Positions 8,029 through 27,716 of a DNA stretch of 43,277 nucleotides are shown in pieces; within the stretch, counting starts at the first letter, position 1; every line of letters starts with the position of its first letter. The notes beneath the pieces are model-generated. The model saw nothing but the letters and a program-made list of their open reading frames with translations, ran no database searches and was not told the origin of the DNA. The translations under genes were made by a program, and so were the position numbers. Source of the DNA: a virus (taxonomy: Duplodnaviria > Caudoviricetes); the IMG/VR virus record IMGVR_UViG_3300033146_003420, positions 1 to 43,277 of that record, one strand, 5' to 3'.

Positions 8029-9936
8029 ATGGCAAAATTAACTAGAAAACTTGATGGTTCTTATGTAACTAATGAAAATAAAAATGTTGGCGATTTAGAT
8101 GCTGCAGCCAGCAGGGGAAGTGAACTTGATAAAAAAAATGTAGACTATGCTACAAAAAACTATGGATACAAACCACCTGCAGGATACAATTCTGGAATTT
8201 CAAATGTTGACCCTATGTTGCCTACTACTCAATCTTTAGCACCTGAGGGTGTACCTGAACCAGAAAATGAATCAGATATTTTTAATTTAATGACTAGAGA
8301 TGCTTTGACTAAGTTTCAAGGTGTAAATACGGCAGATTTAGAAAAGAAAAAAAGGGCTTTACAACAAGCTGCAATAGGGAAATCTTCAGAAATTACAGAT
8401 GAAGATTTAAGAACTTTCAGTCCTGCACAACAAGCAAATATTCGTGCTGGGAATATAAAGGCTTTACAGCCTGAATTTGACGATGTTGCCTACAAATTAA
8501 ACAAGGCTCAGCAATCAACAACTAATTTTGAAAACACTTTTGAAAAAGTGATGGCTATAAATGCGGAATATGCTGAAAAAATAGTTGCACCTGAAGCGGT
8601 AATAGAAAATTACAAAGAATTAATTGAAGCCGATCCTCAAAATGTAAACACTTATTTAGCAAAAGTAAATGACAAAACCAGAGAAGCTATTCTTGGAGTT
8701 TTAGATTATTCAAAAATGAGCCCAAAAGAAGAAACAACAAAAGCCCCTTCGATTGATGACCAGTTGAAAGCTATGGAAGCAGGTTACGACATAGGAGATG
8801 ATGGCTTATTAGTTAAAAAACCACCTGAAATTTTAACTGAAACTGGAGCTATCGGAGGTCAATGCGGAGATTATTTGCATAAAATTGCTGGAAATATTCC
8901 TGCTATGGGGGATACATTTGAAGAAAAAATGAGAATGGCGAATATGTCTACTGCGAATTATGAAGTTGGAGATGTTTTAATTCAAAAAACTAACCAACCT
9001 TACGGACACGTTTCTATTGTTAAATCAGTTGACGGTGACACAGCAACCGTAATAGAAAGCAATTACGGTTTAGATGAAAAAGTTGGAGAAAGAACTATAA
9101 AAATGGGAGACCCTTCTATTCAAGGAGTTTATAGGGGTGCGGAATTAAAAGAACCAGAGGCAGATGACAAAATAGACGAAGACAGCAAAAGTATCTTAAT
9201 TGCAACTGGATTATCTTTGCCAGCATTTGGTTTCTTAACTAGAGGCACTAACGCTTTAACAAGAATGTCGGCTGACCAAAGATTACAATATATGGGTGAA
9301 GCTGAAGAATATTTGAACAGAACTGGAACTGACGTTGCGACTTTCCAAAGCCAATACAACGCTTTAAGCAAAACGGTTGAAGCCAACTCTTTAAGAAATA
9401 ATCAAGCTGAAGTTGCTGAAACTGAATTGATTGCTACTGTGGATAATTTAAGAACTGCTGCAGATGAAGCTGAATTTAAAAAATTAAAATTATTAAATGT
9501 GGCAAAACTTTTTGCTGGCAAAGAACTTAACGATGATGCTACAATTAAATATTCTTTTCATTTACAACAATTAAGAGAAGAATTTGCCATGTACAATATG
9601 GCTATAGCTGGTCAACTTGATTCTAACGGAAATATTAGAGAAATAAATGAATCGGATTATCGCAAAGCTGAAAGTATTATTGCGAACGGAATAGCGAAAG
9701 GCAGTTTGGATGGTTTCGAAAATGCATTGGTTGCTTCAATGGAGAAAATGAAAGTAGTTTTAGCAGACAGTATTGAACATCAAGATAAAAAAGTATGGGA
9801 ATTGTTTGGAGTTGGGGACAGTTACCAAGGAAGAGAAAAAAATGAAGAAACTATTAGGGTGCAATTAATTTCTAGTGGTGAAACTGGAACTATTCCAGCA
9901 AACGAATTTGACGCAAGTATTTATAAAAAATTATAA
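8029..9936 (+). CDS. Internal virion protein with CHAP amidase/endopeptidase domain
   Basis: GGQCGDY...GDVLI...PYGHVSIV...VIESNY: CHAP Cys/His/Glu motifs at about 8850-9140. Confidence 0.8.
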   Translation: MAKLTRKLDGSYVTNENKNVGDLDAAASRGSELDKKNVDYATKNYGYKPPAGYNSGISNVDPMLPTTQSLAPEGVPEPENESDIFNLMTRDALTKFQGVNTADLEKKKRALQQAAIGKSSEITDEDLRTFSPAQQANIRAGNIKALQPEFDDVAYKLNKAQQSTTNFENTFEKVMAINAEYAEKIVAPEAVIENYKELIEADPQNVNTYLAKVNDKTREAILGVLDYSKMSPKEETTKAPSIDDQLKAMEAGYDIGDDGLLVKKPPEILTETGAIGGQCGDYLHKIAGNIPAMGDTFEEKMRMANMSTANYEVGDVLIQKTNQPYGHVSIVKSVDGDTATVIESNYGLDEKVGERTIKMGDPSIQGVYRGAELKEPEADDKIDEDSKSILIATGLSLPAFGFLTRGTNALTRMSADQRLQYMGEAEEYLNRTGTDVATFQSQYNALSKTVEANSLRNNQAEVAETELIATVDNLRTAADEAEFKKLKLLNVAKLFAGKELNDDATIKYSFHLQQLREEFAMYNMAIAGQLDSNGNIREINESDYRKAESIIANGIAKGSLDGFENALVASMEKMKVVLADSIEHQDKKVWELFGVGDSYQGREKNEETIRVQLISSGETGTIPANEFDASIYKKL

Positions 9937-9944
9937 TAAAACAT

Positions 9945-12900
9945 ATGGCATTTATAAAAGACAAAACTCAACCTACTCCTGGATTTGTTCCAGACAACAA
10001 ACCTTTTAATCAACCTACAAAAAAAGAAGAACAAAAACCTTTGAGCTTTAGAGAAAAATTAACTGCAGCTTTGCCAACCCCTTTAAAGCAAATAGATGAA
10101 TTCGGACAAGGGGTTAAAAAGTTTAAAAAAGATGTTTTAACTGGAGTTGGAAAAGGGGCTTTAAGCACCGTTAGGGGTACTTTTGGATTGGCACAAAAAG
10201 CATTTGAAACTCCTTCTCGTGCTTTGGGGTTAAAAACTGAAGATAAAACTGCTATTGAAAAAATAATACCTGAAAAATTAACTAAACCTGACGAAAGTGT
10301 TGGGCAAAATATCGGGTTTTACGGAGAACAAATTGGTGAATTTTTTATACCTGCATCTTTGTCTTTAAAAGCTGGAAAACTGGCTAGCGGTTTAGTAAAA
10401 GGTGGGAAAATTGCAAAAGGTGTGGCAAAGGTGGGGGCAATTAGTGCCACTGAAGGTGTTTTAGGAACTGGACAATCTGCAATGCAATCTGGAGAATTAG
10501 GAAAAAGAGAATTAGAAGTTGGTGCATTTTCTATGGTTGCACCACCTATTTTAGCAGGTGCAGGAAAAGGGTTAAAAGCAATCGCACCAACCCCTGTCAA
10601 AGAACTTGTAAAAGAAACTGCAAATAAAATTTTAAGACCTAGTATGAAATCACTTAAAGATGCAAAATATTACGACAAAGCTGAAGATGCTTTTAATGTT
10701 TTAAGTTCTTACAAGAAAAAATTTGATGGAGTTGCTAGAAACCCTAAAAATGTAGGCGAAACATTGTCTACTTTGAAAAATGCAAAATCTAAAATATATG
10801 AAATTTATTCAGATATATCCACAAAAGCTGGTGAAGTTGGTGCAAAATTTACACCAGATACAGCAATGGCTGATTTATCTAATTGGATTAAAAAAACAGG
10901 TTATTCAAGTGAAATAAAAGAATATACTGCCAAACAATTAAGAAATTTGAGTGATTTAACTGGTGCTAATCCCACTAAAGTTCAAGACAGAATAGAAGAA
11001 TTAAATGCAGGATTAAATTTATTTGGAACAGGTTCTGATAAAATAAAGACTCAAATAGATGCATCAATAGCTTCTAGGCTTAGAAAAAGTTTAGATGATT
11101 TAATTTTAAAAACTGGTGGAGATAATTATCAATTTTATAGGAATCAATATGCTTCATTGAAAACCATTGAACAAGATTTAGCAAGACATGCTGCAATCAT
11201 AGCTAGAAAATCTAAAACTGGATTAATAGACATGACTGATATTTTTTCAGGTGGTGATATTTTGGCTGGAGTTTTGACAGGAAACCCGACATTACTATTA
11301 AAAGGCGGTGCTGGTAAAGGGATAAAAGAATATTTTAAATGGTTAAATGACCCAGACAGGTTGTTGGCTAAACTTTTTGGCAAATTAGAAAAAATTGAAA
11401 AACCTGCACCTCCTGCCAGAACTCCAAATCAAAAATTATTAGGTGAAGGGAATCCAATGTTACCTAAATCTCAAAACAAAGTTCCAATTAAATTACCTTC
11501 AAAAACTCCTTCAACTGTAGAGAAAGGTGAATTGTTTATGCAATCAAACAAGAATATATTAAAAGAAGATAGTGGACTTCTTAAATTAAAATCAGGGGAA
11601 ACTATGATAACCCCTCCGCCAACTAAAAAAAACTTGCCTTTTGCAAAAAAAAGTAGTATAGTTAAAAGTAGTGATGATTTTAGTAATTTAATAAAAGAAA
11701 AAATGAAAGGCTCAAAGGGGCTTGAAAAGGGTGCGTATGACTATTTATTGAAAAATAAAGATAAATTAAAAACTCAATATTTAAAAGAAAACACCAAAAA
11801 AGGAACAATAGTATTAGATTCAGATATAGCTAAAACTTACTATAAAAAATTAGGTTACAACAATGCTAACGCAAGTGATTTTCAAGAACCAGCGTCTTTG
11901 TTAACTAATACTTTATACAAGGAGTCAGTAGAAAAATTGAAAAATCAAGGTAAAACTGTATTTTTAACTGCAGGAGGTCCAGGATCGGGAAAGTCTACTG
12001 CTATAGAAAAATCTCTAGGGGATATTGGGGCTGATTTGATATATGATTCTTCTATGTCGAATTTAGGAGGTTCAATAAAAAGAATTGAGTTAGCTTTGGA
12101 AAACGGATTAGAGCCTACAGTCGCAGTAGTTTTGAGAGACCCTAAAGAGGCTTGGTTTAATGGTGTATTGTCAAGAACTAAAGCTGGAAAAAGACACGTG
12201 AATTTAAAAACTTTTATGGATTTGACTTACGGTTCTATAAATACAATTCAAAAATTATCTAAAAAATACGGAGATAAAATTGATTTTAAATTTATTGGAA
12301 ATTACGGAGGGCTTGATGACATTAAACTATTAGATTTAGACAGTATAAATAATTTTAATAAACAATTTAATAAAGAAAAAACATATGAGGAAATTATTCA
12401 AGGAACAAAAAAACTCTTTAAAAAAGGAGAACTTGACCCCAAACTCGTCCCAGAAATCAAAGGTGAATATTCAAGCATTCATAAAGGGGTTAAAGGAGGG
12501 AATAAAAACAACATCAAACCGAACAAACAATTAAAAAATCCATTATTGCCTAAAACTAAACCAATCGAAAAATTCGAAGGCTTAAAAGAAGTTTCAACAA
12601 AGTTAGTTGAAAAACTAAAAGGAAAAACATTAGTTTCAAAGCAATTCATATCAGATTTAACAAAAGGAAAAGATATGACAAAGCCTGAAATAAAAATAAT
12701 AACTGAAGTTTTAGATGCTATGCCTGAAGGCAAAGTTAATGTTAAAGATTTTGCTAAAAAAGTTGAAGTTGAATTGTTGCCTTTGAATATAGCCAAAGGC
12801 AATAAATTTGAAAAATCTGCCACAGGCATCGCAAAACGATATGAAAATATAACTTTAAACGATGATTTAAGAGGAAATGTTGCAAAATACACAGAAAATA

Positions 12901-13907
12901 TATATGAAAGTCCAGTTAAAACATCCGCAGGTGAAATTCATTTTGGACAAACTTCAGAAAACTATTACGGTCATACAAGGGTTGAAGATATGGGTATTGT
13001 AAATAGGAATAATATGGGTTATAAGGATGAATTAATTGCCTACATAGAAATGCGTGAATCGCAAGGAGCAACCAAAGAAACAATAAAAAAAGAATTAAAA
13101 TACAATAGAGAAAATGAGACTGTTAGAAGGGTCATTGAAGTACAAAGTGATTTGTACCAGAAAGGAAATTTGGAAAAGGAAATGACGGCTTCTGGGAAAG
13201 ATTTATTAAAAAATGTTCCTAGTAGAGATTTTGATGAAGTTATTAAAAATGCAAATAAACTTAGAGAAAAAGAAATAAAACCTTTGCAACAATACAACGA
13301 CCCAACCGCTCATTTCCGTATGGTTCGTGAAGAAATTAAACAAGCTGCAATTGACGGAAAAACTAAATTGCAATTTCCTACTGGGGAAACTGCTATGAAA
13401 GTTGAAGGTATGGGAAATGCTAATTCTTGGTATTTTGGAAATAGTAATAATTTTACAAATTTAATTCCTGATAATATAAAAATAGGTATGACTATTAAAA
13501 ACGACAGGGGCGGATTTGGCAATCCTGATGCATTAGAGTGGGTAGTTACAGAAATATTAGAAAACGGAAAATTTAAAGCTATTGAAAAAGAAAAAATAAC
13601 AGTAAGTATGGAACATTCCAATATAAATTTTGAAAAAGCTTTTAAAGAAGCTAGAGAAAGTCGTTTAGTAGAACAATTTGATATTTCAGAAAAAGTTGAT
13701 AGAGATAACCCAATTTACAAATTCTACGAAAAAACTTTAAAAAAATACCTTAAAAAGATTGAACCTCAAATGAAAGAAATTACTGACGATCGAGGCGTAA
13801 GTTGGTTTGAAATACCAGTTAGTAAAGAAAAAGCCAAGATGCCAGTTGAGGCCTTTGGGGTTTTGCCACTTATTCCATTTGCAAACAAAAATAAGAACGA
13901 AAGTTAG
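9945..13907 (+). CDS. Large polyvalent ejection-type protein with zeta-toxin-like P-loop kinase domain
   Basis: Gly/Ala-rich N-terminus; FLTAGGPGSGKST Walker A, LIYDSSM, VLRDP..AW..VLSR..GKRHV; C-terminal domain with GHTRVED and IEVQSD motifs. Confidence 0.75.
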   Translation: MAFIKDKTQPTPGFVPDNKPFNQPTKKEEQKPLSFREKLTAALPTPLKQIDEFGQGVKKFKKDVLTGVGKGALSTVRGTFGLAQKAFETPSRALGLKTEDKTAIEKIIPEKLTKPDESVGQNIGFYGEQIGEFFIPASLSLKAGKLASGLVKGGKIAKGVAKVGAISATEGVLGTGQSAMQSGELGKRELEVGAFSMVAPPILAGAGKGLKAIAPTPVKELVKETANKILRPSMKSLKDAKYYDKAEDAFNVLSSYKKKFDGVARNPKNVGETLSTLKNAKSKIYEIYSDISTKAGEVGAKFTPDTAMADLSNWIKKTGYSSEIKEYTAKQLRNLSDLTGANPTKVQDRIEELNAGLNLFGTGSDKIKTQIDASIASRLRKSLDDLILKTGGDNYQFYRNQYASLKTIEQDLARHAAIIARKSKTGLIDMTDIFSGGDILAGVLTGNPTLLLKGGAGKGIKEYFKWLNDPDRLLAKLFGKLEKIEKPAPPARTPNQKLLGEGNPMLPKSQNKVPIKLPSKTPSTVEKGELFMQSNKNILKEDSGLLKLKSGETMITPPPTKKNLPFAKKSSIVKSSDDFSNLIKEKMKGSKGLEKGAYDYLLKNKDKLKTQYLKENTKKGTIVLDSDIAKTYYKKLGYNNANASDFQEPASLLTNTLYKESVEKLKNQGKTVFLTAGGPGSGKSTAIEKSLGDIGADLIYDSSMSNLGGSIKRIELALENGLEPTVAVVLRDPKEAWFNGVLSRTKAGKRHVNLKTFMDLTYGSINTIQKLSKKYGDKIDFKFIGNYGGLDDIKLLDLDSINNFNKQFNKEKTYEEIIQGTKKLFKKGELDPKLVPEIKGEYSSIHKGVKGGNKNNIKPNKQLKNPLLPKTKPIEKFEGLKEVSTKLVEKLKGKTLVSKQFISDLTKGKDMTKPEIKIITEVLDAMPEGKVNVKDFAKKVEVELLPLNIAKGNKFEKSATGIAKRYENITLNDDLRGNVAKYTENIYESPVKTSAGEIHFGQTSENYYGHTRVEDMGIVNRNNMGYKDELIAYIEMRESQGATKETIKKELKYNRENETVRRVIEVQSDLYQKGNLEKEMTASGKDLLKNVPSRDFDEVIKNANKLREKEIKPLQQYNDPTAHFRMVREEIKQAAIDGKTKLQFPTGETAMKVEGMGNANSWYFGNSNNFTNLIPDNIKIGMTIKNDRGGFGNPDALEWVVTEILENGKFKAIEKEKITVSMEHSNINFEKAFKEARESRLVEQFDISEKVDRDNPIYKFYEKTLKKYLKKIEPQMKEITDDRGVSWFEIPVSKEKAKMPVEAFGVLPLIPFANKNKNES
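11634..11662 (+). promoter_or_regulatory. Candidate intragenic sigma70-type promoter
   Basis: TTGCCT-N17-TATAGT, matching the intergenic promoter candidates of this genome. Confidence 0.5.
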
Positions 13908-22785: not shown

Positions 22786-23598
22786 TTAAACCCCTATATT
22801 GTAGAACAAAATAGGATCTTTTAGTTCATTAATATTATCTAATAGAAACCGCCAAGCTTTTAAATCGTAATAAGGTGAAGACGGAAATGGAGCCTCTGTT
22901 GTTTCCGGAGTATAATAATCATTCAACCTAGCTGGCAACAATTTAACATTGCCTAAATTAAAAGCACCGACTGAACTCATTCTTTTTCTTTGTTTTTTAA
23001 TGTTCATACCTGCGGATATTGCATATATTTTGTTCTGTTTTCTTTTTAAAGCCCTTACCACTCCTGATGTTATCATTCCTGAACCTATTGACAACACAAG
23101 GTCACCACCTAATAATTCTTCAGGGATAGAAAGTGCCTGTATTTTAGTTTGTTCTACGCTTTCAGGAACTGTTAAACCAAGTGGCATAGGTATTATGTTG
23201 TTTGTTTTCATATAGTTTTTAGCTTGAGAATACAGAACTGCAGTTCTACCGCCTTTCATTGGCATAATTTTATGACCTAGTTTTACCACTTCTTTTTGAA
23301 TATCTGGAGTTTTATTTTTATAACCAATAAGTTGGGGGTAGAAATTAGTTATTTCTATACCCCCTAATTCGTTTGCTATTGCCGCACATCCCCATCCTGA
23401 TTTACTTACCCTTGTGTCAAAAACTCCTATTTTTTTAGCACCTTCTTTTTTCATCCTGTTTATTACAATATACACTCCACGCAATTTCGCGAGAGGGGGA
23501 GCTGGTTTGTTGCAGCTCAAATCCTCTCTTTTTACATGTACAGTTCTTCCTAAAACTTCATATTTTTCTATTGGTGTAAATTCGTTTATAATTTTCAT
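22786..23598 (-). CDS. Fold-type II PLP-dependent enzyme (ACC deaminase / D-cysteine desulfhydrase-like)
   Basis: TPI...VKREDL...AKLRG (Schiff-base Lys), SKSGWG, SIGSGMITSG phosphate loop, PYYDLKAW, ILFYNIG. Confidence 0.85.
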   Translation of the reverse strand: MKIINEFTPIEKYEVLGRTVHVKREDLSCNKPAPPLAKLRGVYIVINRMKKEGAKKIGVFDTRVSKSGWGCAAIANELGGIEITNFYPQLIGYKNKTPDIQKEVVKLGHKIMPMKGGRTAVLYSQAKNYMKTNNIIPMPLGLTVPESVEQTKIQALSIPEELLGGDLVLSIGSGMITSGVVRALKRKQNKIYAISAGMNIKKQRKRMSSVGAFNLGNVKLLPARLNDYYTPETTEAPFPSSPYYDLKAWRFLLDNINELKDPILFYNIGV

Positions 23599-23599
23599 A

Positions 23600-24895
23600 T
23601 TAATCTTCTCTTTTATATTTGTATATTAAATGATTGTTTTCGTCTTTTCCTGAAACTACTAAATTTTTGAAGAATTGAGCTGGATTATTTGGATTTTTAG
23701 GATTGTCCCAGATGTATGCAGCTTTTTCCATGAAAGTTTTATGATCGTATTTAAGGTGACCTTCAGTGCTTCCAAGATTTAACCAAGGGCTAATTTTTTG
23801 ATTCATAAATATTTTTTCGTGTTCTTTCATATTTCCATACATTTCGTCAAAAGTTACTTGACCGTTTTCCATAGCCAAGAATAAAGCCCTGCTAGAATTT
23901 GTAGATAAATAATTGTCAAATCCAGGATAACCCAAAGGCAAACCGCAACAAATAGGAGAGTCACCATAATCTCTTAAAGAATTATCTGCAGCATAAAATT
24001 CTAATCCAAGTTTATGTGCTTTAGCTTTGAATTTTTTCAAAATAGGCAATTTGTAACTATCTCTTAATTCTGAATCAGTACCAGTCATTACAGCTTTCCA
24101 CTTATAAAATTTAAGAACATCGAATCCAACCGCTTTGCTGATTTCATTAATACCTTTCAAAACTTCAGGGGTTTTAAAATTAGATAATTTCATAAATTCT
24201 ATTGTAACTGCACTAGCCCCCATTTCTTTAATTGTTTCAAGGTATGAATCAGTGTTTTTTTCGCAAAATTTAGGTATAAAAGGTTGACACCTAACAACCA
24301 CCCTGTGAGTATTAGACATAGCTTTTATTAATTGCAATCTCCCATTAATTTTAGTTCCTGGTTCAATTTTTTCTATAGCAGGGTCTACAGATATTAAGCT
24401 AATCTGAATTACCATGTTCTTGTTAGCCTTCATAGCTTCAAGGTATTCAGGGTTGTTCCACAACCAGTCCCCCTTTGTGCTCATAATAACAGGGTATTGG
24501 TGTTTAGCTAAAAGCCTTAAAGTCTTCAGGCTAACCTTTTCTTCGTTGCATTTTTCAAAATTTGAAAACGGATCAGAAATACCTCCCCAATGTAAAGGCA
24601 TTCTTAATTTTATCAACCCTTTGTAAATCTTCATTATTTCACCATCTTTTTCGTTTGGCTCTTCGTTAAATGCTCTTTCTAGTACATTGTAGTTGATGGT
24701 TTTAGCTTCATCATCAAAAAACTTTTTCCCCTTTGTTGAACAGTTTAAAAGGTAGTTGAAATAACTAAAACAATATTTACATTTGTGTGTGCACCCTTGA
24801 TATGTGTCGAGGCTGAACGGAAATGAACAATAAAAATATTGCCCATTACACCTTAACCCCATATAAGTTTTTTTACTCTTTGTTTTCTTCTCCAT
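23600..24895 (-). CDS. Radical SAM enzyme, spore-photoproduct-lyase-like
   Basis: LDTYQGCTHKCKYCFS (CxxxCxxC), GGISDPF, STKG, RCQPFIP, plus an extra ICCG. Confidence 0.9.
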   Translation of the reverse strand: MEKKTKSKKTYMGLRCNGQYFYCSFPFSLDTYQGCTHKCKYCFSYFNYLLNCSTKGKKFFDDEAKTINYNVLERAFNEEPNEKDGEIMKIYKGLIKLRMPLHWGGISDPFSNFEKCNEEKVSLKTLRLLAKHQYPVIMSTKGDWLWNNPEYLEAMKANKNMVIQISLISVDPAIEKIEPGTKINGRLQLIKAMSNTHRVVVRCQPFIPKFCEKNTDSYLETIKEMGASAVTIEFMKLSNFKTPEVLKGINEISKAVGFDVLKFYKWKAVMTGTDSELRDSYKLPILKKFKAKAHKLGLEFYAADNSLRDYGDSPICCGLPLGYPGFDNYLSTNSSRALFLAMENGQVTFDEMYGNMKEHEKIFMNQKISPWLNLGSTEGHLKYDHKTFMEKAAYIWDNPKNPNNPAQFFKNLVVSGKDENNHLIYKYKRED

Positions 24896-25730
24896 ATTTT
24901 TTTATAAAATTAATTAATGATTTATTAAATTTTTCACTTTTATCAAAAGGACTTCCTGTGTTTTCAAAATAGAATTTTTTGATTTCATTGTAAACCTCTT
25001 CTTTGTCAAAATACAACTTTAAAACATAAACTTTAGCATCTTTATATTCGTTTACCCCCTCGCCTTGAGCACTTTCTTCATCAAAATTTTTGTCAAATAC
25101 AGTTTCTTTGTTGTAAGCAGACATTTCTTTCACATCCTGAATTATGTCTTTGTCAAGCCCTGCAGCTTCAAGTGTTTTATCTAGTTCTTTTAATTTTAAT
25201 TCTTCACCGCTCATAGCTAATTCATCTATAATAGACTGCATAGTTTTTTTCTCACCGAATTCTACAATACCTTCAAAAAATGAAGCTTGTTCACCTGAAT
25301 CTTCTACCATTTCTTTTAACTTTTCCCTAGTGTATTCACCAGCTGAAAAATTATCAGATAAGGCATATCTAATCCTTTCTTCATAGCTCCAAGCCTCAAC
25401 TAAACTAATCCACACCCATTGATAATTATCATCCTTTTTAGCTAGTTCTTTAAATATCTTATACCTTTGGTTACCTCCAAGTATTTCACCGTCTGGAGTA
25501 GAAATTAGAGGCTTGTATATACCTAGAGTTTTAATTTGTTCCTCTAATCTTTGGCTATTTTTCTTGTCAATAATACGAGGGTTTTTTGGCCAAAGCCTTA
25601 GCCAATCAAGCCTAGCATAGATTTTGCCATCTCTTTGGCAAACATTTCCAATGTCTTGACCTTGGACTGGTTTGTCTTTTTCAAAAGATTCGATTTGACC
25701 TTGGACTGTTGTTTGATTTTTATTTTCCAT
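24873..25730 (-). CDS. ParB/Srx N-terminal domain protein
   Basis: WPKNPRII...LEEQIKTLGIYKPLI...EILGGNQRY...SDN; acidic C-terminal region. Confidence 0.85.
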   Translation of the reverse strand: MENKNQTTVQGQIESFEKDKPVQGQDIGNVCQRDGKIYARLDWLRLWPKNPRIIDKKNSQRLEEQIKTLGIYKPLISTPDGEILGGNQRYKIFKELAKKDDNYQWVWISLVEAWSYEERIRYALSDNFSAGEYTREKLKEMVEDSGEQASFFEGIVEFGEKKTMQSIIDELAMSGEELKLKELDKTLEAAGLDKDIIQDVKEMSAYNKETVFDKNFDEESAQGEGVNEYKDAKVYVLKLYFDKEEVYNEIKKFYFENTGSPFDKSEKFNKSLINFIKKYGEENKE

Positions 25731-26501: not shown

Positions 26502-27329
26502 TTAAACTTTAATTATCATATTATTATTTATATCTCTTTTTGCTTGAGCTACAAGTTGGTCAAATTTTTCTCTTAACTTTCCTGCTGATAAAATATTAGC
26601 ATTCCAAAAATCATCCTTTTGAGCCCATTTTATTATAAGGTTGATGTCGTTTTCTTCTCTTCCGTCAATTTTTCTCATTTTCCTAATGTCGTCTGCCCAC
26701 AGCCTTAAGTTCGGTTCTTTGTGGTTGGGGTTATTAATTCTTATAAGTTCTAATAAATATTTGGCTATGTTCATATCTTCATCTTCGTAATTATACTTAC
26801 TTGTCGTCTCGTTGGGATTTTTAATCTTCAACTCTTCTCTTAACTTAACTTCTCTTAACTTAACTTCTCTTAACTTAATGCACGGAGACTTTTCGGCTGA
26901 ACGGACAACTTTTTGGCTGAACGCATCCGTCCGCATCCGTCCGCATCCGTCCGCATCCGTCCGCATTTCTATCAAATTAGCATTCTCCCATTCGTTTTTA
27001 GCACCTCCAAGGAGAATTGGTTTAATGTCTTTTCTAAATTCTTGATGGTTGTTAAATTTACTATACTGGTAATATTTATTTTTTTCAAATTCTACCATTA
27101 ACCAAAGTTTATTTTTTAATATTTCATTTACAATTTTTAACATTTCTTGTTCATTTTCGTTCCAAAAGGGAACAACAAGATTTTTTAATTTTAATGGAGA
27201 ATAATAAATTAACCCGAAATCATCAGTATGGGCTATTCCCCAAGTGTATAATATTTTTGCTTTGTCGCTTAAACAATTTACTTTATCCGATATGGATATT
27301 GATTTGTTTAACATTCTTTTTTGAGCCAT
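26502..27329 (-). CDS. Phage replication initiator / replisome organiser
   Basis: N-terminal MAQKRM...LSDKAKILY...DDFG; repeat-rich linker; C-terminal WADDIRKM..IDGR..KDDFWNANILSAGKLREKFDQL (lambda O-like C-terminus). Confidence 0.85.
   Translation of the reverse strand: MAQKRMLNKSISISDKVNCLSDKAKILYTWGIAHTDDFGLIYYSPLKLKNLVVPFWNENEQEMLKIVNEILKNKLWLMVEFEKNKYYQYSKFNNHQEFRKDIKPILLGGAKNEWENANLIEMRTDADGCGRMRTDAFSQKVVRSAEKSPCIKLREVKLREVKLREELKIKNPNETTSKYNYEDEDMNIAKYLLELIRINNPNHKEPNLRLWADDIRKMRKIDGREENDINLIIKWAQKDDFWNANILSAGKLREKFDQLVAQAKRDINNNMIIKV
26835..26966. repeat. Tandem repeats inside the initiator gene; putative iterons/origin
   Basis: About 3x TTCTCTTAACTTAAC (26835-26878), 2x ACTTTTYGGCTGAACG (26888, 26908), 4.5x CGCATCCGTC (26922-26966). 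Confidence 0.85.
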
Positions 27330-27646: not shown

Positions 27647-27675
27647 TTGCTTTATTTAAACAAAAAAGCTATAAT
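27647..27675 (+). promoter_or_regulatory. Rightward promoter for the packaging/structural arm
   Basis: TTGCTT-N17-TATAAT. Confidence 0.75.
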
Positions 27676-27716
27676 AATAATAAGGGTTAGTAACCTTATT
27701 ATTATTATAGCTTTTT
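27663..27716. repeat. Perfect 23-bp inverted repeat with 8-nt spacer
   Basis: AAAAAGCTATAATAATAATAAGG-gttagtaa-CCTTATTATTATTATAGCTTTTT. Confidence 0.9.

Follow-up and report, generated by a model that had tools for sequence, protein, structure and literature searches.

A phage ParB–radical SAM–PLP gene trio is a candidate thymidine-hypermodification module without a recognisable kinase or transferase

How might a phage attach an amino-acid-derived group to the thymine of its DNA when none of the enzymes that prepare the base in described systems can be recognised in its genome? The question is raised by IMG/VR record IMGVR_UViG_3300033146_003420 (Duplodnaviria; Caudoviricetes), analysed here over its whole length of 43,277 nucleotides (the window). 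It carries three minus-strand genes, encoding a ParB/Srx-like protein (24873..25730, 285 aa), a radical S-adenosylmethionine (SAM) enzyme of the spore photoproduct lyase (SPL) fold (23600..24895, 431 aa) and a fold-type II pyridoxal 5′-phosphate (PLP) enzyme (22786..23598, 270 aa). The first two open reading frames (ORFs) overlap by 23 nt (24873-24895) and a single nucleotide (23599) separates the second from the third; the trio lies downstream of a replication initiator gene (26502-27329, minus strand) and upstream of ERF and YqaJ genes. The gene coupling and the replication-operon placement described in the initial annotation, which was made from the sequence alone, therefore both hold, and the motifs that it named (GNQR, CxxxCxxC with an extra CC, KREDL..K and the GSG-loop region) are present and conserved in aligned homologues. 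We find that the module is real and widespread, that it very probably modifies a DNA base, and that the radical SAM enzyme probably installs an α-amino acid which the PLP enzyme trims. The reading that we favour, with a rough probability of 0.42, is that an amino-acid side chain (of cysteine, less likely serine) is captured at the thymine methyl group after replication, and that the PLP enzyme then decarboxylates the adduct.

Single-sequence searches for related loci gave nothing, and alignments were required as queries. The alignment-driven scans, each limited to its best 80 loci, returned 80 radical SAM loci, 79, 80 and 2 PLP loci, a further 80 radical SAM loci that partly overlap the first set, and 38 ParB loci; partner profiles derive from these same loci, and subsets were confirmed with Pfam. 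Among 107 distinct radical SAM sequences of the window's residue type (QK, defined below), 45 were accompanied within 3.5 kb by ParB and PLP genes of the same orientation, in the order ParB-radical SAM-PLP or ParB-PLP-radical SAM. These sequences fall into 28 groups at 95% identity and 9 at 70%, so the co-occurrence of the three genes is conserved, and the association is not due to chance. The radical SAM family as a whole is large (619 representatives of 50%-identity clusters at E ≤ 1e-30) and frequent in the fetched prophage loci. The largest trio group combines a short, 339-aa radical SAM enzyme with a PLP enzyme from a more distant subfamily; it lies immediately ahead of terminase genes, a slot that is occupied in phage Cooper by a pair of ParB and Tet_JBP-like genes. 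Many of the loci L009-L083 are prophage-like and run from two ParB genes through the 339-aa QK enzyme and an optional PLP gene to the terminase genes. The second gene of the Cooper pair (gp2, L409:785-1753) is annotated as a queuine tRNA-ribosyltransferase; it matches Tet_JBP (E 4e-8) and follows the ParB gene.

The partners are not equally constant. In loci fetched by the radical SAM enzyme alone and having at least 1.5 kb of flank, a ParB gene was adjacent in 72 of 72 QK cases, and a PLP gene was present in 35 and absent from 37. One pair of loci has radical SAM enzymes that are 98.8% identical, one with the PLP gene (L009) and the other, a complete genome, without it (L010); another complete genome (G049), with a radical SAM enzyme 41% identical to that of the window, has ParB and the radical SAM enzyme only. 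Since the PLP gene is optional, ParB and the radical SAM enzyme are likely to finish a first product bearing an α-amino acid on their own, with the PLP enzyme trimming it where present.

What the PLP enzyme does is suggested by its relatives (published systems are cited throughout from excerpts of the papers named). It aligns end to end with gp52 of Pseudomonas phage M6 (32% identity over 281 columns, E 2e-43), K38 falling on the predicted Schiff-base residue K36 of gp52, and it matches phrog_7093 (E 1.6e-41). K38 and G172 are invariant in 82 aligned PLP enzymes (of 91), and the K23-REDL motif is present. A tblastn search of cultured phages returned 68 records, 66 of them with a query coverage of 80% or more; among the 50 matches listed, most were Yuavirus-like (YuA/M6-like) Pseudomonas and Bordetella phages. 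A tree of 69 rows places the M6 clade as a single branch within the family; the window enzyme falls in a starred clade of eight rows made up of radical SAM-linked enzymes. The nearest solved folds of the predicted model are D-cysteine desulfhydrase, ACC deaminase and cysteine synthases, which accounts for the earlier call of a desulfhydrase/deaminase type; this elimination/replacement fold is, however, common to the window enzyme and the M6 gp52 family, and NCBIfam gave no match at E 0.1 to TIGR01275 (D-cysteine desulfhydrase) or TIGR01274 (ACC deaminase). The idea of an enzyme distinct in type from that of M6 is thus not borne out. As reported by Lee et al. (PMC8989533), M6 gp52 and ViI gp226 decarboxylate thymine-attached amino acids on DNA and require a free α-amine. 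By family membership, the window enzyme is likely to be a downstream trimmer, namely a decarboxylase of a DNA amino-acid adduct.

Genes of the gp52 family also occur in other settings. Twin SPL-like radical SAM genes flank one, between DnaB and PolA genes and with neither kinase nor amino acid:DNA transferase (ADDT), in L100, L103, L106-L108, L116, L131, L140, L147, L153 and others, and two loci of this group (L153 and L156) additionally hold an R-type radical SAM gene (see below). In nine loci (L177, L183, L187, L188, L198, L203, L218, L243 and L244) the PLP gene stands beside a methylase-fold gene, with neither radical SAM enzyme nor ADDT, and in L339 (5962-7977) a PLP domain is inserted within a ParB-methylase fusion. 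A Cys-rich DUF3109-like gene, possibly for an Fe-S electron carrier, lies between the radical SAM and PLP genes in L004 (9357-9893), L170 and L176, and before the PLP gene in L189.

The thymidine hypermodifications described in the papers cited here begin from 5-hydroxymethyluracil (5-hmU) and proceed through a kinase and a transferase. When nine M6 genes were compared with the window by tblastn, gp52 was the sole match, and gp54 and gp55 gave none. Profile searches of the complete genome found no ADDT (PF18724; controls positive), no thymidylate synthase (PF00303), no Tet_JBP domain (PF12851) and, at E 0.1, no 5-hmU DNA kinase (PF18748), a very divergent kinase still being possible. Across 35 records, ADDT was found in nine, comprising 7 of 15 R-type records and both M6-like controls; the 12 window-type records, to which the window belongs, and the 6 short-form records had none. 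Thymidylate synthase occurred in three of the 35 (both controls and the record of L085), and Tet_JBP in none, phage Cooper, the positive control, being matched below the cut-off; neither was matched in the 15 R-type records. The absence of a recognisable M6-type front end (5-hmU source, kinase and transferase), asserted in the initial annotation, is thus upheld, and so, through these searches and the conservation of the trio, is the proposal of a compact candidate DNA-hypermodification module with neither kinase nor transferase. Because the complete genome offers no other source for the adduct, that role probably falls to the radical SAM enzyme.

The predicted AlphaFold2 structure of this enzyme (pLDDT 92.5) has SPL as its best fold match (Foldseek E 5e-7; VIA Z 17.9), in agreement with the SPL-type assignment made at the outset. 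The radical SAM cysteines C35, C39 and C42 are nearly invariant in 43 aligned sequences (of 48), and C316-C317-G318 is invariant. C23, C316 and C317 are present in all 61 QK proteins compared, and the window enzyme has no SPASM match in Pfam. M6 gp53 carries a cysteine and QCHG where the window enzyme has C23 and C316/C317, and is reported to contain about 9 Fe. Since the extra cysteines are near-invariant and match those of this iron-rich protein, a second Fe-S cluster on C23/C316/C317 is likely. The link to gp53 exists at the profile level only (HHalign probability 98%, 16% identity), with no match at the BLAST level. We rejected the window enzyme as an orthologue of gp53, the 5-NedU isomerase, given this remote match and its position in a separate clade. 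The hydrogen-donor cysteine of SPL (C140/141) presumably falls near H102-D108, a segment without cysteine. No match to the radical SAM enzyme was found in cultured phages, and sequence searches of the PDB returned nothing for this protein or for the PLP enzyme. Both proteins are basic (pI 9.0 and 9.7, respectively).

The residues around the putative active site divide the family. At positions 19/204/236/305/308 the window type has Q/Q/K/N/R and a sister type has E/R/C/A/K; we refer to these as QK and R, assigned on positions 204 and 236. The window enzyme also has E233 and D312. The loci yielded 140 distinct full-length radical SAM sequences, of which 107 are QK, 19 R and 14 mostly from twin-radical SAM loci: an ADDT or TAGT gene lies within 3.5 kb of none of the QK and of 12 of the R sequences. 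In a database set of 195 proteins (67 QK, 124 R and 4 other), 26 long proteins were scanned for fusions, and all ten TAGT fusions found were of R type, one being fused to a kinase as well. R enzymes of almost identical sequence have ADDT as their neighbour in one phage and TAGT in another. TAGT needs a 5-hydroxymethyl base, as do, in the excerpted literature, the ADDT and kinase partners; because both kinds of transferase share this need, the R enzymes are likely to hydroxylate the thymine methyl group without oxygen. In the tree the R type is one clade (support 99) nested among QK lineages (90-92, unstarred), so activation of the methyl group is likely to be common to both types. Position 236 is lysine in QK and cysteine in 67 of 86 R enzymes, which fits, at the level of sequence, a cluster site that is open in the former and filled in the latter.

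Several further features of this family came to light. R-type genes, with neither thymidylate synthase nor Tet_JBP and in the place that TET/JBP would otherwise take, adjoin or are fused to TAGT, or lie beside ADDT and kinase genes, in L008, L033, L064, L075, L006, L013, L076 and L062 and in P0034, P0035 and P0176, and in L008 a SAM-synthetase-like gene adjoins the R-type gene. Inteins, some with homing endonucleases, interrupt R-type enzymes in L098, P0180, P0224, P0234, P0244 and P0249. For one QK and one R protein (P0007 and P0032) the longest contig listed has the same length, 40,890 bases, and both types may therefore be present in one phage.

The ParB-like protein has an N-terminal GNQR domain (about residues 35-145) and a C-terminal portion that belongs to no known family. 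It matches the PHROG ParB-like family (E 1e-15); it has no Pfam match of its own, although its homologues match ParB_N. G86, N87 and R89 of the G86-N87-Q88-R89 motif are invariant in 22 aligned homologues (of 25 found). Fifteen distant relatives were scanned, and nine are fused to N6/N4-methylase domains, two to PAPS-reductase-like domains and one to a methylase and a PLP domain; given this range of fusions, the family would appear to be a general helper of modifying enzymes. According to O'Toole et al. (PMC13229309), a cognate ParB activates a phage thymine dioxygenase on double-stranded DNA, the CTP residues not being needed in the assay. By analogy, the window protein is likely to be an activator or loader of the radical SAM enzyme. 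We dropped the possibility that it substitutes for the front end as a serine or hmU kinase, as ParB also accompanies R-type loci that own a kinase; the fusions to unrelated modifying enzymes disfavour it as well.

These elements can be combined into a pathway. On the published dioxygenase parallel, ParB would activate the radical SAM enzyme or hold it on double-stranded DNA. The SPL fold and the sister clade suggest that the 5′-deoxyadenosyl radical would then remove a hydrogen from the thymine methyl group. In the third and least certain step, the putative C23/C316/C317 Fe-S site would bind a cysteine thiolate at an open iron, while K236, R308, Q19, N305 and D312 would grip the amino-acid end, to give 5-(S-cysteinylmethyl)uracil. 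Finally, as its family membership suggests, the PLP enzyme would remove CO2 to yield 5-(2-aminoethylthiomethyl)uracil, a sulfur analogue of the 5-NeOmdU of phage ViI. That the resulting thyminyl radical reacts with cluster-bound cysteine in QK enzymes and with water in R enzymes is the simplest model, given three conserved cysteines and a lysine in the former and the fourth cysteine in 67 of 86 of the latter; in thioether-forming radical SAM enzymes, an auxiliary cluster is described as the binding site of the substrate chalcogen (PMC10177961). Cysteine is also pointed to by neighbouring genes. The two closest IMG/VR relatives (radical SAM enzymes 57-59% identical) have a serine O-acetyltransferase-like (cysE) gene just after the PLP gene, and one distant relative has both cysteine synthase (cysK) and cysE genes in the module. 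A generic cysE motif occurred in 50 stretches of the viral collection, 45 of them within 2.5 kb of a contig end and hence likely host flanks; QK modules account for three of the 50 and for two of the five internal ones.

Several points weigh against this reading. The base, the co-substrate and the second cluster are all inferred. The window and G003 have no cysE gene, and cysE lies near just four of the 107 QK sequences; the carriers all belong to one PLP clade, so the captures may be non-independent, and two of the three cysE-like proteins score below the cysE cut-off and above that for EpsC, and could acetylate something else. The counts of QK and R contexts are phylogenetically non-independent, and most R records are fragments, with one ADDT-bearing record complete (G023). 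The Pfam Tet_JBP profile fails to detect many dioxygenases. Moreover, the window avoids GATC, CATG and ACGT (observed/expected 0.12, 0.18 and 0.26), as do its close relatives; seven M6-like loci lack such avoidance (0.91-1.0 for T-containing palindromes), a comparison confounded by GC content and host. GGCC, CCGG and GCGC are also avoided in the window, GCGC being absent. The avoidance of palindromes suggests heavy type II restriction pressure, and its persistence makes blanket protection by the mark unlikely; the anti-restriction role first proposed remains a hypothesis. By analogy with post-replicative dioxygenases, which are reported to modify 17-35% of T, the mark is likely to be partial or context-limited, or to serve another purpose.

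The rival that survives best, which we nevertheless consider unlikely, is that the radical SAM enzyme moves the 3-amino-3-carboxypropyl (ACP) arm of SAM to the base by non-canonical cleavage, as Dph2 and ArsL do in ACP transfer, and that the PLP enzyme decarboxylates the product to an aminopropyl base. ACP is the sole α-amino-acid part of SAM, and no further gene would be needed to supply it, in keeping with most QK loci. The same PLP family occurs beside N6/N4-methylase-fold genes of 330-390 aa where radical SAM and ADDT genes are missing (27 such ORFs within three genes of a PLP gene), the ParB-methylase fusion of L339 holds its PLP domain by insertion, and ACP transfer to DNA is possible at these loci. 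The intermixing of QK-linked and methylase-linked PLP enzymes on the tree also counts against cysteine capture, as it favours a common SAM-derived substrate. The methylases, however, retain an ordinary DPFAG...PPY signature and may be plain methylases, and ACP transfer leaves the cysE and cysK genes unexplained. Further, the nested R clade seems to hydroxylate the methyl group, an easy switch from capture of a nucleophile and a large one from ACP transfer.

It is improbable that the target of the module is not DNA but tRNA, a protein of the virion or host, or a free metabolite, or that the radical SAM enzyme makes a small mark such as 5-hydroxymethyluracil with the PLP enzyme acting separately. 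The persistent palindrome avoidance would suit either variant, but precedents for action on DNA exist in each of the three families, the module adjoins replication initiators or precedes terminase genes in the slot of the Cooper ParB-Tet_JBP pair, the radical SAM and PLP proteins are basic, and R-type relatives are fused to DNA glycosyltransferases.

More improbable still is the coupling chemistry proposed in the initial annotation, in which the PLP enzyme would form an aminoacrylate from O-acetylserine or cysteine, and a thyminyl radical from the radical SAM enzyme (or a base thiol) would add to it. O-acetylserine is the product of CysE, whose gene stands without cysK in L004 and L005, inside the PLP clade of the window, and the nearest solved folds of the PLP model agree with such chemistry; that fold match applies equally to gp52-type enzymes, however, and the tested members of the family are decarboxylases. 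The proposal is weakened by the dispensability of the PLP gene, which is absent from 37 of 72 QK loci, complete genomes included, and differs between the pair of loci with 98.8%-identical radical SAM enzymes. That the radical SAM enzyme is an SPL-like DNA-repair lyase with incidental neighbours is very improbable, for despite the SPL fold its matches to the PA0069 (55.9 of 360 bits) and Rv2578c (46.7 of 430 bits) families lie far below the curated cut-offs, the SPL model TIGR04070 gave no match at E 0.1, and the tight coupling to ParB and PLP genes and the TAGT fusions of the sister clade point elsewhere.

The remainder of the genome is that of a complete phage of about 43 kb, with direct terminal repeats (114-bp identical ends), a GC content of about 31% and two divergent arms: terminase, capsid and tail genes on the plus strand, and the replication initiator, the trio, ERF and YqaJ on the minus strand. 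A hairpin with a 20-pair stem (27666-27713) lies between the replication and packaging arms, and a promoter scan of the window gave a result at chance level. On the plus strand, a 1320-aa late protein (9945-13907) with a zeta-toxin-like P-loop kinase domain at residues 694-775 adjoins a CHAP-domain protein (8029-9936); both are probable ejection proteins.

What seems novel in the module is its front end for thymidine hypermodification. In the literature covered by the searches, no description of a ParB-radical SAM-PLP module was found. On the proposed pathway, one radical enzyme acting on plain thymine would replace the 5-hmU, kinase and transferase steps and could create a new base, possibly containing sulfur; the R sister clade would make 5-hydroxymethyl DNA accessible without oxygen. 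The family escaped surveys that used the kinase as their marker. The rival mechanisms predict different product masses, and the module comprises three small genes. More speculatively, and with some doubt on our part, QK enzymes would be the first radical SAM enzymes to join a free amino acid to an unactivated DNA thymine in one step, giving a sulfur-linked base, S-cysteinyl-T, that in this phage is decarboxylated to aminoethylthiomethyl-U; and one branch, through a small number of active-site substitutions with K236 to Cys among them, would have become a thymine hydroxylase that works without oxygen in place of TET/JBP.

Collectively, the trio most resembles, in its parts, the M6 5-NedU pathway (gp58, gp54/55, gp51, gp53 and gp52), as described in the excerpts of PMC8989533: both place a gp52-family PLP gene beside an SPL-fold radical SAM gene with extra cysteines, and in both a base-attached amino acid is (for the trio, is predicted to be) trimmed by decarboxylation. 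Unlike M6, the trio lacks a dUMP hydroxymethylase, kinase and ADDT and adds ParB; E233 and K236 of its radical SAM enzyme face K and E in gp53, and it likely makes the adduct where gp53 isomerises one. The predicted product is the sulfur analogue of ViI 5-NeOmdU (gp247 O-seryl transfer, gp226 decarboxylase; same source), with the same side-chain linkage, free α-amine and single decarboxylation; the proposed linkage arises by radical C-H functionalisation of plain thymine, whereas that of ViI is reported to arise by displacement on phosphorylated hmU. As in the ParB-dependent thymine dioxygenases (5mYOX176/ParB176; O'Toole et al., PMC13229309), whose neighbours are given as glycosyltransferases, terminases, transferases and kinases, a ParB-like gene is coupled to an enzyme that activates the thymine methyl group. 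Here the partner is an Fe-S radical SAM enzyme and not an Fe/2OG dioxygenase, so that no oxygen would be needed; radical SAM and PLP enzymes go unmentioned in the main text of that paper. SPL is the best structural match over residues 1-304 of the radical SAM enzyme (Z 17.9), which differs from it in its low identity (12-16%), a C-terminal extension of about 125 residues, the extra conserved cysteine triad and a modification-type gene context. Lastly, the proposed abstraction of hydrogen and formation of a C-S bond with a thiol at an auxiliary cluster recall the chemistry described for PapB and Tte1186 (PMC10177961); those enzymes are reported to crosslink peptides, whereas here an enzyme of SPL fold would act on free cysteine and DNA.

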